This document shows, piece by piece, positions 34,700-37,502 of a stretch of 64,000 nucleotides of DNA. The notes beneath the pieces were generated by a model. The model searched no databases and was not told the DNA's origin. It saw only the letters and a program-made list of their open reading frames with translations. This DNA is from an uncultured bacterium (lineage in GTDB: Bacteria; Zixibacteria; MSB-5A5; CAIYYT01), in NCBI GenBank assembly GCA_963726455.1, contig CAVSCK010000005.1:224001-288000 (forward strand). Reading direction: 5' to 3'. The stretch's first letter is position 1, and each line of letters begins with the position of its first letter. The translations under genes and the position numbers were made by a program.

Positions 34700-35830
34700 A
34701 TGAGAAGGATTTGCCTGCTACTGTTGTCTGTGGCCGCTTTTCTCTTTGTTACGAATCCGTTGTCAGCAGCCGAAACCAAGTTTAGTGGCGTGATTTTCGG
34801 CAACTGGACACTGCATCTTAATGACCAGGGGCTGTCGAAGAATTACAATTACTTCGATATCACACGCGCCCGTCTGATCGTCGATCATCAGTTTAGTGAC
34901 AAGTATTCCGCCAATATGATGCTTGACCTGGTCCCGCGCGACACGGCAGATCCCAGCGCCGATCGATTCGGCCTGTCATATCGTTTACGTTCCGCCTACA
35001 TCCAGGGCGACAAGCTCGTCCGCTATACCACGTTCCGCCTTGGTCTGCAGGGAATTATGTGGTTTGACAAGCTGGAGAATTTCTGGGGCCTGCGCTATAT
35101 CGATAAAGTATCTTTGGACAAGTTTGGTTACCTCGACCGCGCCGACTTCGGCGTTAGCGCCATTATGGATTGCCCGGGCAACTATGGTACCGTAGCACTT
35201 CAGATCTTCAACGGTTCCGGCTATGCCGGTCGCGAGGCAAATCGGAACAAGGATTTTGTCGGCTTCGCGTCGTTCAACCCCATGCCCAAGAATCCTGACT
35301 TCGGCGAATCCAGTGTTTGGTTCCAGTATTACAAGGGCTGGCCGAACATTGCAAACACTGCCCCTGCCGGTGAAAGCTTCCATTCCATTACCAAGAGAGA
35401 CCGTTTGCAGCTAGCGGGCGCCTTCAAGTACCGTAAGTGGGCGACCGCAGTAGCGGAATACTTCCATACGTCGGATGACAATATTCCGACTAATCTTCCG
35501 GGTAACCTAGACGTGCAGAAAGCCAAGGGCGTGTCGCTGCTGGGCAAGCTGAATGTTGCCACTGCGGAGTCCTGGCTTGCCAGAGTCTATATTTTCGCCA
35601 AGTATGATTGGATCGATAAGAACTTGCAGCTTGACAAGTCGCTTGAGCCGTTTGCCTCGCAGGCGGGCGACGCGCGCGGCATTATCGGCGGTGTCGGTTA
35701 CGAGCCGGTCGACGGTTTGAATATCGCCTTGTCAATTTCGCGTTTGACCACCAAGTTGAACGATCGGAACATAGCCGTCGTGGAAGACGAAAGAAACTCG
35801 TTCGTCTTCAATTTCAGCGCAGCTTTCTAG
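34700..35830 (+). CDS. Outer-membrane beta-barrel protein (putative porin)
   Basis: AAGGAG RBS; signal peptide; FDITRARL motif; amphipathic strands; terminal Phe. Confidence 0.75.
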   Translation: MRRICLLLLSVAAFLFVTNPLSAAETKFSGVIFGNWTLHLNDQGLSKNYNYFDITRARLIVDHQFSDKYSANMMLDLVPRDTADPSADRFGLSYRLRSAYIQGDKLVRYTTFRLGLQGIMWFDKLENFWGLRYIDKVSLDKFGYLDRADFGVSAIMDCPGNYGTVALQIFNGSGYAGREANRNKDFVGFASFNPMPKNPDFGESSVWFQYYKGWPNIANTAPAGESFHSITKRDRLQLAGAFKYRKWATAVAEYFHTSDDNIPTNLPGNLDVQKAKGVSLLGKLNVATAESWLARVYIFAKYDWIDKNLQLDKSLEPFASQAGDARGIIGGVGYEPVDGLNIALSISRLTTKLNDRNIAVVEDERNSFVFNFSAAF

Positions 35831-35850
35831 ATTCTCAATCAGGTGATACC

Positions 35851-35887
35851 AAAAGGCCCGGTCAGATTTGACCGGGCCTTTCTTTTT
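35851..35887 (+). terminator. Intrinsic terminator of the porin gene
   Basis: AAAGGCCCGGTCA-GATT-TGACCGGGCCTTT followed by CTTTTT. Confidence 0.85.
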
Positions 35888-35891
35888 GAGC

Positions 35892-35923
35892 AAAAAAAGA
35901 GAGCGGCAAGTGCGCTCTCTTTT
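35892..35923 (-). terminator. Intrinsic terminator of the candidate sRNA
   Basis: Minus strand reads AAAAGAGAGCG-CACTTGC-CGCTCTCTTTTTTT; separate from the porin terminator. Confidence 0.8.
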
Positions 35924-36058
35924 GATGGGAAATAGTCCTGACCCTGTCGTCAGGTCTTCCTTAACAAAACTTGGCTAAATATCAGTGACAGACCCTGTCG
36001 CCTGCCCACTCGTCTTGTCGCTGTTCCCTCCTAGCAAAATGTGAACGTGCTCCCCCGT
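35892..36058 (-). ncRNA. Candidate sigma-54-dependent small RNA (~165 nt) with two identical GACAGG-loop hairpins
   Basis: Has its own -24/-12 promoter (36069-36084) and terminator (35892-35923); repeat GACCCTGTCG at 35940 and 35991; no well-placed start codon. Confidence 0.65.
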
Positions 36059-36068
36059 TATCTATGCA

Positions 36069-36084
36069 TGCAAATTTCGTGCCT
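36069..36084 (-). promoter_or_regulatory. Sigma-54 (-24/-12) promoter
   Basis: Minus strand reads AGGCACGAAATTTGCA, one mismatch to TGGCACG-N4-TTGCW. Confidence 0.75.
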
Positions 36085-36211
36085 CAGAGTTTGCACTCGG
36101 AGTCAAGATACTGATACAATGAGAGTTAGATGCAGAGGGAGGGTTTGGTCACCGACCCGGTTTTCCCAGGAATGTATGCAAAAGCGACGCTGTCTTTCAC
36201 ACTTGCCTGAA

Positions 36212-36227
36212 TTGTCATGCATGACAA
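36212..36227. promoter_or_regulatory. Perfect 16-bp palindrome TTGTCATGCATGACAA; candidate enhancer (bEBP UAS)
   Basis: About 130 bp upstream of the -24 element; an extra TTGTCAT half-site lies at 36279. Confidence 0.55.
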
Positions 36228-36360
36228 CGGATTAATGGTTACCGCCACCGTCGAGAATCCGAACAAGGTTGGCACTGTTTGTCATACGATATAAGTAGAC
36301 ACAGTCACGCGCTGTACGAATGTGCTTGAGCAACGAAATAACGGACGACAAACTGTGGTA

Positions 36361-36789
36361 TTACTTGAACAGGGCTTTGATCTTGCCCCAGGTGGACAGG
36401 CGGACATCCAGAGTGGTTTCGACGCGCAGGTCAATCTTGAGGTTGTCTGCAGTCGGCGAGAACGTGGGCTTGGCGTTTCGCCCGTTCAGCTTGACCTGTA
36501 TTACGTCGGCGATTGACCGATAGCCCTTTATATCGGGCCTGGAAGGGTCGTATTCGGGAATGCGAAGTTCAAAATTGCCGTTATCCTGAGTTTGCACCTC
36601 GGTGATCTTGTCCTCGCCAATGAATGCAGTCAAAGGCAGGCCCTTGTCGGCAGGGCGACCAAGGAATTGAATGGTGCCGGTTACGATGCAGACATTGGTA
36701 AAGAACAGCGCCTTGGCAGCCGCTGAACAGAGTAATGCCAGCATCAGGCACAAAACTACAACTTTGAAGCGCTTTAAGGAATGCGTAAT
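36361..36789 (-). CDS. Small secreted protein with C-terminal STWGKIKALFK tail; start uncertain (possibly ATT at 36789)
   Basis: Signal peptide KRFKVVVLCLMLALLCSAAAKA; beta-sandwich-like body; TWGxIK tail; AGGAG 5 nt before ATT. Confidence 0.7.
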   Translation of the reverse strand: MTHSLKRFKVVVLCLMLALLCSAAAKALFFTNVCIVTGTIQFLGRPADKGLPLTAFIGEDKITEVQTQDNGNFELRIPEYDPSRPDIKGYRSIADVIQVKLNGRNAKPTFSPTADNLKIDLRVETTLDVRLSTWGKIKALFK

Positions 36790-36845
36790 GACTGCTCCTG
36801 CAACTAATCTCCCCTGGTACAAATTACGTGTATGTCCAAAATGTG

Positions 36846-37502
36846 TCAAGTTTTTTTGCGATCGGTCCGGCGGGGCAAATTGTTAACCAGCGAAAATGAC
36901 AGGTACTCCAGTTCCATCGCCATATTCTCGGTGCGAATAAACACATCGTCCGGAACTTTCAACTTGATGGGTGCAAAGTTGAGAATGGCTTTGATCCCGC
37001 AATGCACGACATGGTCTACGATTGCCTGCGCCGATGACGCCGGCACGGCCAATATGACCATCTCGATCTTATTCTCGTTTAGTTGCCGCTCAAGGTCGTC
37101 CATACCCAACACGGTGATGCCCTTGTGATTGGAGCCGATCTTGCGCTGGTCATTGTCGAACAGAATCTTGATATTGAACCCCTGCCGGGAGAATTCCTTG
37201 TAGGATACGAGTGCCGAACCGATATTTCCCACGCCTACCAAGGCTACGCTCCAGGTGCGGTCGATCCCGACGATGCGGGCGATCTTTTCTTTCAATTCCC
37301 TGACCGGATAACCCAGACCACGTGTGCCGAAAGAGCCAAAGAACGACAGATCTTTGCGAACTTGAGCCGGAGTCAGCTTTTCGCGGCGCGCCAATTCCTT
37401 GGAGGAGATGGTGTCGAAGTGTTCACGCTCCAACTGGGTCAGGGCACGGTAATAGTGAGAAAGTCGCTGAATTGTTGACTCAGATATTTTGCGTTCTTTC
37501 AT
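36846..37502 (-). CDS. rex: Redox-sensing transcriptional repressor Rex
   Basis: TIQRLSHY.R.L, QVRKDLSFFGSFGTRGLGY, VGVGNIGSAL, AILNFAP. Confidence 0.97.
   Translation of the reverse strand: MKERKISESTIQRLSHYYRALTQLEREHFDTISSKELARREKLTPAQVRKDLSFFGSFGTRGLGYPVRELKEKIARIVGIDRTWSVALVGVGNIGSALVSYKEFSRQGFNIKILFDNDQRKIGSNHKGITVLGMDDLERQLNENKIEMVILAVPASSAQAIVDHVVHCGIKAILNFAPIKLKVPDDVFIRTENMAMELEYLSFSLVNNLPRRTDRKKT

Follow-up and report, generated by a model that had tools for sequence, protein, structure and literature searches.

Qrr, which is activated by LuxO, and CrcZ, which is activated by CbrB, are enhancer-activated, sigma-54-dependent small RNAs (sRNAs) with their own terminators. Here we describe a gene of the same kind, by analogy with these RNAs, in a 64-kb window of contig CAVSCK010000005.1 (assembly GCA_963726455.1, positions 224,001 to 288,000; 64,000 nucleotides (nt) analyzed) from an uncultured member of the Zixibacteria. 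The gene is on the minus strand, at approximately 36058 to 35892, and stands alone between the 3' ends of two convergent genes. However, no homology to Qrr or CrcZ was detected, Hfq was not found in this genome, and the RNA has no repeated A-rich or GGA motif set. It also recalls the CsrB and RsmY sponges, in that its own RNA contains a repeated hairpin motif and CsrA is encoded in the genome, but the repeat is not conserved, has only two copies and does not present GGA in its loop.

The sRNAs GlmY and GlmZ of the Enterobacteriaceae are described, in the part of PMC3045617 considered here, as having sigma-54 promoters under an NtrC-type regulator, with TGTC-N10-GACA sites more than 100 bp upstream and IHF sites between, and the two RNAs share one activator. 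The locus described here likewise belongs to the sigma-54 sRNA genes. In contrast, it shows no sequence or Rfam match to GlmY or GlmZ, the corresponding spacing is N9 in a sister genus and N6 in the window, and the regulator gene is not adjacent, an NtrC-type gene being found 3.5 kb away in only one subgroup of the sister genus. GlmY is a protein decoy, and nothing suggests a decoy role for this RNA.

The PEP-CTERM regulon offers a further comparison. In Proteobacteria, Haft et al. 2006 (PMC1569441, in the part considered here) described a 17-nt motif ending in TTTACA, followed by a 32-92-nt spacer and a sigma-54 motif, and tied this arrangement to PrsR/PrsK/PrsT by phylogenetic profile. In the part of PMC3333781 considered here, DVUA0057 of Desulfovibrio vulgaris bound PEP-CTERM genes in a DNA affinity-purified chip (DAP-chip) experiment, and no link between PEP-CTERM genes and an sRNA is reported in that part. 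As known so far, the regulon consists of protein genes. The sister-genus form of our RNA and the PEP-CTERM genes of the family resemble it in having a 17-nt motif, present in some cases more than once, then a spacer tens of nucleotides long and a sigma-54 promoter, and the genome of the window encodes PrsK/PrsR and an exosortase. The differences are that the product here is a non-coding RNA, that the box reads TGTC-N9-GACA, that the lineage is not proteobacterial and that the promoter in the window has no such box. We consider it fairly probable that the gene produces a stand-alone, enhancer-dependent sigma-54 non-coding RNA that acts in trans by base pairing through a C-rich stretch, within the sigma-54 programme of the PEP-CTERM genes. 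If the link through the box is true, a widespread and poorly understood system of surface-protein sorting and biofilm formation would gain a level of post-transcriptional control.

The conserved RNA and its promoter

The counts given here refer to 21 genomes of the family, of which four belong to the genus of the window, 13 to the sister genus, two to a third genus and two to genera with a single genome each; 130 other genomes of the class served as a further comparison set. The main features of the RNA gene are as follows.

36069 to 36084, minus strand: sigma-54 -24/-12 promoter AGGCACGAAATTTGCA, with GG at 36082-36083 and GC at 36070-36071
36056 to 36060, minus strand: predicted transcription start, about 12 nt past the -12 GC, placed from promoter geometry
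35943 to 35954, minus strand: core 5' hairpin CCUG-ACGA-CAGG, from the 17-sequence alignment and RNAalifold
35937 to 35954, minus strand: hairpin 2 in its longer form, CCUGAC-GACAGG-GUCAGG, with the alternative 6-bp stem CCUGAC/GUCAGG
35923 to 35935, minus strand: unpaired, near-invariant CUAUUUCCCAUCA, the proposed seed, from the consensus fold (RNAalifold)
35892 to 35923, minus strand: intrinsic terminator AAAAGAGAGCG-loop-CGCUCUCUUUU within a U7 run, from the fold; also read as AGAGAGCG...CGCUCUCU followed by U7, ending at 35892

The first-pass annotation, made from the letters of the window, had proposed an unannotated sRNA gene that runs from a sigma-54 -24/-12 promoter to a terminator of its own. 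This is borne out by the comparison, in which the stand-alone gene is conserved in 17 genomes, and the features listed in that annotation are found where it had placed them, on the minus strand. The transcript is predicted from the sequence to be about 167 nt long, from a start near 36058 to the U7 terminator at 35892.

BLAST matched 36044-35891 of the window in all three of the other genomes of the genus at 73% identity, and in eight of the 13 sister-genus genomes over the last ~50 nt only. A first covariance model (R1; 12 sequences, 6-bp 5' hairpin) found the RNA in 16 of the 21 genomes, and was replaced by a second (R2; 15 sequences, 4-bp hairpin) once divergent members appeared. R2 found one copy each in 17 of the 21 genomes at 50-104 bits, namely in all four genomes of the genus and all 13 of the sister genus; it gave weak partial matches only in both genomes of the third genus and nothing in the two single-genome genera. 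There was no convincing copy in the 130 other genomes of the class, where R2 gave five matches of 26-33 bits only, all of which proved on inspection to be plain terminators after coding sequence. In addition, the seed pattern matched 109 stretches in the collection of named genomes, seven of which are genuine, with the hairpin motif at most 45 nt upstream, the others being taken as chance without inspection. Among named records, those with the RNA bear the labels Zixibacteria, Ignavibacteria or 'uncultured bacterium'. The RNA stretch is single-copy in its own genome.

The first-pass annotation had also expected that Rfam would contain no such RNA, and this expectation was correct. Rfam 15 at gathering thresholds gave no match in the window and none in seven loci of relatives, and with E up to 10 only terminator-type partial matches far below the thresholds appeared. 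Judging from the full-text literature on Zixibacteria, sRNAs of this uncultured lineage appear to be undescribed so far. The RNA is a new RNA family of a known kind, outside Rfam, and its covariance model and promoter pattern can be used directly for annotation.

Relative to the same-genus genome G003, identity is 49% upstream, 78% in the promoter, 58% in the 5' extension, 80% in the core and 38% past the terminator. The neighbouring genes in one genus have no relation to those in the other, and therefore it is the RNA unit itself that is conserved. Within it, the unit common to the family is the 3' core of about 70 nt, in which a hairpin and an unpaired stretch precede the terminator. The alignment of 17 sequences gives the order CCUG-loop-CAGG, with a loop that is mostly RYGA, then a linker of 0 to ~22 nt, then CUAUUUCCCAUCA, then the terminator.

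All lettered cells of the core hairpin are paired in this alignment, which has one gap cell there, and its changes comprise one compensatory U-A to C-G exchange (CCCG/CGGG in G010) and one U-G. The 6-bp alternative stem can form in the genome of the window and in most of the sister genus, through a GUCAGG lying downstream; it shows one-sided changes only and is absent from the three other genomes of the genus. In the terminator, four of nine pairs are changed on both sides across the 17 genomes. For the whole core, in this model-fitted alignment, pairing extends to 98.6% of cells, and five of 13 pairs are changed on both sides; none of 500 column shuffles reached the paired fraction or the covariation score, one reached the changed-pair count, and slid controls of the pair counts were far lower. 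RNAalifold on the same alignment returned the same two helices with the C-rich middle unpaired. 

In the window, the 169-nt RNA folds at -51.7 kcal/mol, compared with -43.3 +/- 3.7 for shuffled sequences (z = -2.26; 3 of 200 shuffles as good), and hairpin 1 (see below), hairpin 2 and the terminator are all present in both the minimum free energy (MFE) and centroid folds. The 5' hairpin AACG/CGUU proposed in the first-pass annotation can be written, but it is in neither of the two folds.

The unpaired stretch is the most conserved part of the RNA and lies directly before the terminator, and for these reasons we propose CUAUUUCCCAUCA as the seed. UCCCAUCA is kept in 16 of the 17 genomes, with UCUCAUCA in G014. 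The base before it is U in 15 genomes and A in G008 and G015, and the linker preceding it varies in length and sequence; the variants of CUAUUUCCCAUCA in the family are AUUCCCAUCA, AUCCCAUCA and UUCUCAUCA. The MFE fold of the RNA in the window pairs the seed with a 5' G run at 36052-36056.

A strict GGCA-N7-TGC is found upstream on the same strand in 15 of the 17 genomes, and the other two (G012 and G013) read GGTG in place of GGCA; the background of this pattern is 24 occurrences in the 102,620 nt of those loci, including the 15 promoters. In the window, AGGCACGAAATTTGCA is the only match to TGGCACG-N4-TTGCW with at most one mismatch, and 47 of 100 shuffles reach it. Several single features taken alone are within chance, and the locus stands above it by virtue of its conservation in other genomes. 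A search for a sigma-70-like promoter in 35500-36700 found none. As the first-pass annotation had asked of a sigma-54 gene, rpoN is present, its DNA-binding domain scoring 197 bits in the genome of the window; rpoN is found in all 21 genomes, and about 20 open reading frames (ORFs) of the genome of the window have sigma-54 interaction domains.

In the genus of the window, 112-115 nt separate the promoter GC from the core hairpin. In the sister genus this distance is 18-20 nt in six genomes, 32 in G010, 43 in G008 and G015, and 61-62 in G017 and G004, and the variant promoter of G012 and G013 is 9 nt from the hairpin. With its sigma-54 promoter 18-20 nt before the conserved part, the sister-genus RNA would be about 80 nt long, and the RNA of the window has an additional genus-specific 5' extension.

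A box shared with PEP-CTERM genes

In the sister genus, the promoter of the RNA is preceded by TGTC-N9-GACA, centred 85.5-87.5 nt upstream of the GG and exact in 10 of the 13 genomes. The same box is also found at a centre of 161.5-162.5 nt, exact in two genomes and with one mismatch in four, and at 198.5 nt, exact in one genome and with one mismatch in two. We then searched the 21 genomes for a combined pattern, defined as TGTC-N9-GACA followed after 65-95 nt by GGCA-N7-TGC, and obtained 44 matches versus one for the reversed control. Of the 44, ten are the promoters of the present RNA, a second short RNA locus accounts for nine, five precede genes with a PEP-CTERM tail (with a sixth such gene truncated at the end of its contig), ten look on inspection like chance, in or near coding sequence, and the last nine lie outside the inspected set.

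We also analyzed the PEP-CTERM genes of the genome of the window, in which a regular expression identified 10 PEP-CTERM ORFs. In eight of these, the strict sigma-54 pattern lies 30-120 nt ahead of the start codon, and seven of the eight promoters have an N9 box with at most one mismatch, 75-199 nt upstream of the GG. The boxes fall into two zones, at 75-130 and 184-199 nt upstream, and among the spacings of 5-12 examined at these promoters, those other than 9 match only twice. The sister-genus promoter of the RNA has the 17-nt box of the PEP-CTERM genes at the same distances, which is one reason for placing the RNA in the PEP-CTERM programme. The genomic positions concerned, all outside the window, are as follows.

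C2:9760(-), C3:27366(+), C3:699122(-), C4:671436(+), C4:769044(-), C4:961072(+), C4:1003853(+), C5:6612(-): PEP-CTERM start codons with a sigma-54 promoter
C4, approximately 358840 to 359030, minus strand: second RNA in the genome of the window
L238, L218, L219, L224, L241, L230, just after position 1600 in promoter orientation: second RNA in relatives
L232:681-1445(-), with about 125 nt past the stop codon, and L150:513-1575(+): third-genus PEP-CTERM genes with an RNA-like 3' end

The second reason comes from the third genus. The weak model matches in G009 and G007 are the 3' ends of PEP-CTERM genes that have the box and a sigma-54 promoter; in this genus, the RNA core has its homologue in the untranslated 3' end of such a gene. 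The homologous stretch, after the stop codon, reads CAUACAU..CUUAAG..CUCUAUUUCCCAUUAAG plus a terminator, and the likeness covers about 50 nt and the terminator. No internal sigma-54 promoter was seen. The resulting comparative series, from a 3'-untranslated-region form through a short stand-alone form to an extended form, bears on how bacterial sRNAs arise.

The second RNA stands behind a TGTC-N9-GACA box in nine sister-genus genomes. It consists of AUCUUGGCCAGUAGUGUCUU, then UAUCCACU, then a terminator, an order conserved in all six of the nine loci that were inspected, the other three being assigned from the matched text alone. Its counterpart in the genome of the window has a TGGCAGGGTTTTTGCT promoter, preceded at about 81 nt by a box with one mismatch. 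Rfam gave no match to the second RNA at three of its loci, L238, L224 and L241.

Judging from these sequences, the PEP-CTERM box seems to have a non-proteobacterial form in TGTC-N9-GACA. PrsR of the genome of the window scores 557 bits against an NCBIfam cut-off of 502.6, a PrsK-like kinase gene adjoins it (284 bits, with the ORF cut by the locus end), an exosortase is encoded in the same genome, and PrsR is above the cut-off in 19 of the 21 genomes. We regard PrsR as the presumed activator of the promoters that have the box. An NtrC-type regulator and a kinase are encoded 3.5 kb from the RNA in one subgroup of the sister genus only, and this was not taken to indicate a cognate pair, the orthologue being 160 kb away in the genome of the window and on other contigs in G008, G012 and G010. 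No further box or promoter was found in those 15-kb regions.

Upstream of the promoter in the window, two candidate regulatory sites are present.

36104 to 36116, minus strand: IHF-like site TATCAGTATCTTG, an exact WATCAR-N4-TTR, about 27 nt upstream of the -24 GG
36212 to 36227, no strand: perfect palindrome TTGTCATGCATGACAA (TGTC-N6-GACA), centred 136 nt upstream of the -24 GG, candidate enhancer site

The half-sites of the palindrome, TGTCA and TGACA, resemble those of the TGTC-N9-GACA box, with a spacer 3 nt shorter. The palindrome reported in the first-pass annotation is indeed present and perfect, but it is not conserved in the genus, where the three other genomes read TTGTATCCCATGATGA or similar, and no other site of this kind in the genome is at a promoter. 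The pattern TTGTCA-N4-TGACAA has three sites in the genome, the other two being in a coding region and in a terminator hairpin, and the palindrome was therefore rejected as a regulon marker and remains a candidate enhancer only. The pattern TGTCG-N7-CGACA was also discarded, as its genome-wide counts show a 3-nt periodicity across spacings that is typical of coding sequence, and no occurrence lies within ~300 nt of the strict sigma-54 pattern genome-wide. 

The IHF consensus used is that quoted in the part of PMC3045617 considered here. It has three matches in the window versus 3.46 expected, and the relatives have no exact match at the corresponding position. Of the two genes of the HU/IHF family in the genome, one is closest to IHF models yet below their cut-offs. 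As a separate observation, TTTGCATGCAT-like 11-mers occur three times, at 36064-36074 (the -12 region), 36172-36182 (108 nt upstream) and 36217-36227 (the left half of the palindrome).

Proposed mode of action and candidate targets

On the reading that we favour, sigma-54 RNA polymerase and an enhancer-binding activator would start the RNA near 36058, and transcription would stop at 35892. The 3' ~70 nt would be the functional core, and the ~100-nt 5' part with the second GACAGG hairpin would be a genus-specific addition. The RNA would then act in trans, base pairing through the unpaired CUAUUUCCCAUCA as a seed, and the family would be part of the sigma-54 programme that controls PEP-CTERM, that is, exosortase-sorted, surface proteins. 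We infer the base pairing, and with it any target, from sequence.

More tentatively, the PrsK/PrsR programme may have an RNA arm of at least two box-fired sigma-54 sRNAs, of which the present one would derive from the promoter and 3' end of a former PEP-CTERM gene and would tune surface or exopolysaccharide genes via CUAUUUCCCAUCA without Hfq. In this scenario, which we hold to be possible but rather doubtful, the sequence would be a 3' end in the third genus, would have become stand-alone in the sister genus, and would have been extended by duplication and detached from the box in the genus of the window. What deserves following up is this possible RNA arm of the PrsR regulon, together with the succession of forms that leads from a 3' end to a gene standing alone.

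Several observations weigh against the favoured reading. First, no TGTC-N9-GACA with at most one mismatch is found within 260 nt of the RNA promoter in the window or in the three other genomes of the genus. Because the promoters of the RNA in its own genus lack the N9 box, the link to PrsR rests on other genera. Moreover, the box is unlike the proteobacterial motif 1, with its terminal TTTACA, and binding of PrsR to it is a prediction from sequence. Second, in G012 and G013 the -24 element is deviant and only 9 nt from the hairpin. Third, the 17 genomes are related and represent roughly six lineages, and helix 1 has one compensatory event. Fourth, Pfam models for Hfq and ProQ match nothing in the genome, rated 100% complete, whereas control genomes respond, and the usual chaperones are therefore missing; the first-pass annotation had suggested checking for csrA and hfq, and only the former was found, as a single CsrA gene. 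Finally, the search for a conserved target gave none. Across 11,529 candidate start regions, the seed formed duplexes with energies no better than those of five shuffled seeds, the 5' regions of PEP-CTERM genes were not enriched for seed pairing (-10.2 vs -9.4 kcal/mol), and the two best single-genome target matches are not kept in the sister genus.

The individual target candidates were rejected as follows. The lptB-rpoN spacer contains, at C5:498840-498850(-), an 11-nt perfect complement of the seed, 73 nt before the rpoN start and overlapping the lptB stop codon, which would have allowed feedback on rpoN; the match is present in the genome of the window only and is absent from the other 18 complete spacers (20 loci, one cut). 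A 10-nt match covers the start codon of a predicted lipoprotein of 384 amino acids (aa); G003 retains it with a 3-nt bulge, and four sister-genus genomes lack it. Five TGATGGGAA sites lie near gene starts, and the one before a CDP-alcohol phosphatidyltransferase-like gene (identity read from the sequence) falls in the end of the upstream gene. Duplexes of the whole RNA with the 5' region of the neighbouring 376-aa gene were meaningless.

Two further observations concern seed complements. At C4:1165745-1167223, ~42-nt tandem repeats (GCGCACTGCCGTGCGCGACTAC...) flank an ORF read as an IS200-like or repetitive extragenic palindromic (REP)-associated transposase, and two of the ~42-nt repeats beside this ORF carry the 11-nt seed complement. 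In addition, TGATGGGAAA occurs 2-17 times per genome in all 21 genomes, and the same letters backwards occur 0-4 times. This excess may be a codon or stop-codon effect and not target enrichment, most of the sites viewed in the genome of the window being in-frame ..MG[KN]...

Other explanations and the surrounding genes

We also considered the possibility that the locus is a remnant or a cis element, that is, a PEP-CTERM promoter and 3' end left after loss of the coding sequence, serving mRNA 3'-end stability or termination. The third-genus homologue in G009 and G007 fits this idea, as it is the 3' end of a PEP-CTERM gene with the box and a sigma-54 promoter, and so does the length of the 5' part, which varies from 18 to 115 nt. 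The genus of the window also keeps an SD-like (Shine-Dalgarno-like) AGGAGG about 30 nt past the predicted start with no start codon behind it, and this element may derive from an earlier 5' leader, or else be an internal partner for the UUUCCC seed. However, a useless leftover would not keep a promoter, a hairpin, an unpaired stretch and a terminator in 17 genomes while its flanks are at 38-49% identity, and a purely cis role has nothing to act on, because no coding sequence lies upstream. We therefore judge this explanation unlikely.

The 5' extension has the following features.

35955 to 36055, minus strand: genus-specific 5' extension, containing AGGAGG, CGACAAG, hairpin 1 and UAUUUAGCCAA
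36027 to 36032, minus strand: SD-like AGGAGG, kept in the genus as GAGGAGG
36014 to 36020, minus strand: CGACAAG variant
35987 to 36006, minus strand: hairpin 1, GGCAGGC-GACAGG-GUCUGUC, with its stem but not its loop kept in the genus
35971 to 35981, minus strand: UAUUUAGCCAA

The blocks kept within the genus are GUCACAUUU, GAGGAGG, ACGAGURGGCAGGC, GUCUGUC and UAUUUAGCCAA. The first-pass annotation had noted that two stems of different sequence, together with the CGACAAG variant, which is indeed present, carry the same GACAGG hexaloop, and had read this as selection for a repeated protein-binding loop. On this explanation the RNA would be a protein sponge or a multi-seed RNA, its GACAGG hexaloops and CGACAAG titrating an RNA-binding protein or several targets. 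The RNA of the window does carry the 10-nt direct repeat CGACAGGGUC twice, once in each hairpin and 51 nt apart, and a CsrA gene is present. GACAGGGTC is found in the window at these two places only (0.43 expected; at least two in 7 of 100 shuffles), and GACAGG after CCUGRY is kept in 12 of the 13 sister-genus genomes, G016 having GAC-GG. 

However, the loops are not conserved, an outcome that had been named beforehand as one that would refute the first-pass reading. Neither hexaloop occurs in the three other genomes of the genus, in which the loop of hairpin 1 is ACUAGC and hairpin 2 is CCUG-AUGA-CAGG or CCUG-AUGA-CGGG, and the sponge reading therefore fails. Across the family, GACAGG combines the 3' half of the loop with the 3' strand of the CCUG-RYGA-CAGG hairpin, so that it is half loop and half stem, with one such element per RNA outside the genome of the window. 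The GGA motifs are not conserved either, same-genus relatives having CAGGCC and G012 having ACAGUU, and known sponges carry many repeats. This explanation is now quite improbable. Given that hairpin 1 and the AUAUUU following it resemble the core module (CGACAGGGUC..AC..UAUUU), with a score reached by 1 of 2000 shuffles, the 5' part looks, from its sequence, like an internal duplication of one module within this lineage.

A third possibility, which we regard as highly improbable, is that the RNA regulates the convergent gene, which encodes a 376-aa protein, by cis-antisense action or read-through, or that it is the leader of a downstream gene. The end of the RNA is 11 nt from the terminator of the convergent gene, which is also the neighbour in G003 at 58% identity, and in G012 the next same-strand ORF, from a crude ORF finder, abuts the 3' end of the RNA. 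Against this, two strong terminators separate the RNA from the 376-aa gene, the sister-genus neighbour encodes an unrelated protein (E = 0.43), and mostly no same-strand gene follows the RNA. Conserved synteny was likewise rejected as a clue, since the 376-aa neighbour is shared only within the genus.

A small-protein gene is scarcely conceivable: the SD-like AGGAGG of the 5' extension is followed 17 nt on by a GTG that would open a 19-codon frame, but this GTG is GTA in the three other genomes of the genus, the short form of the sister genus has no ATG, and there is no ORF of at least 30 aa on the RNA strand inside the RNA.

The two neighbouring ORFs have no Pfam or NCBIfam family. On the minus strand, the 162-aa ORF at 36361-36849(-) lies behind a gene for a Rex-type repressor. 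On the plus strand, the 376-aa protein, encoded at 34700-35830, is secreted, with a signal peptide, and has no paralogue. Upstream of its gene, a sigma-70-like TTGACA-N17-TATTAA is found at ~34558, and the gene has its own terminator, which marks the end of the locus.

35852 to 35881, plus strand: terminator of the convergent 376-aa gene, a 13-bp stem followed by a T run

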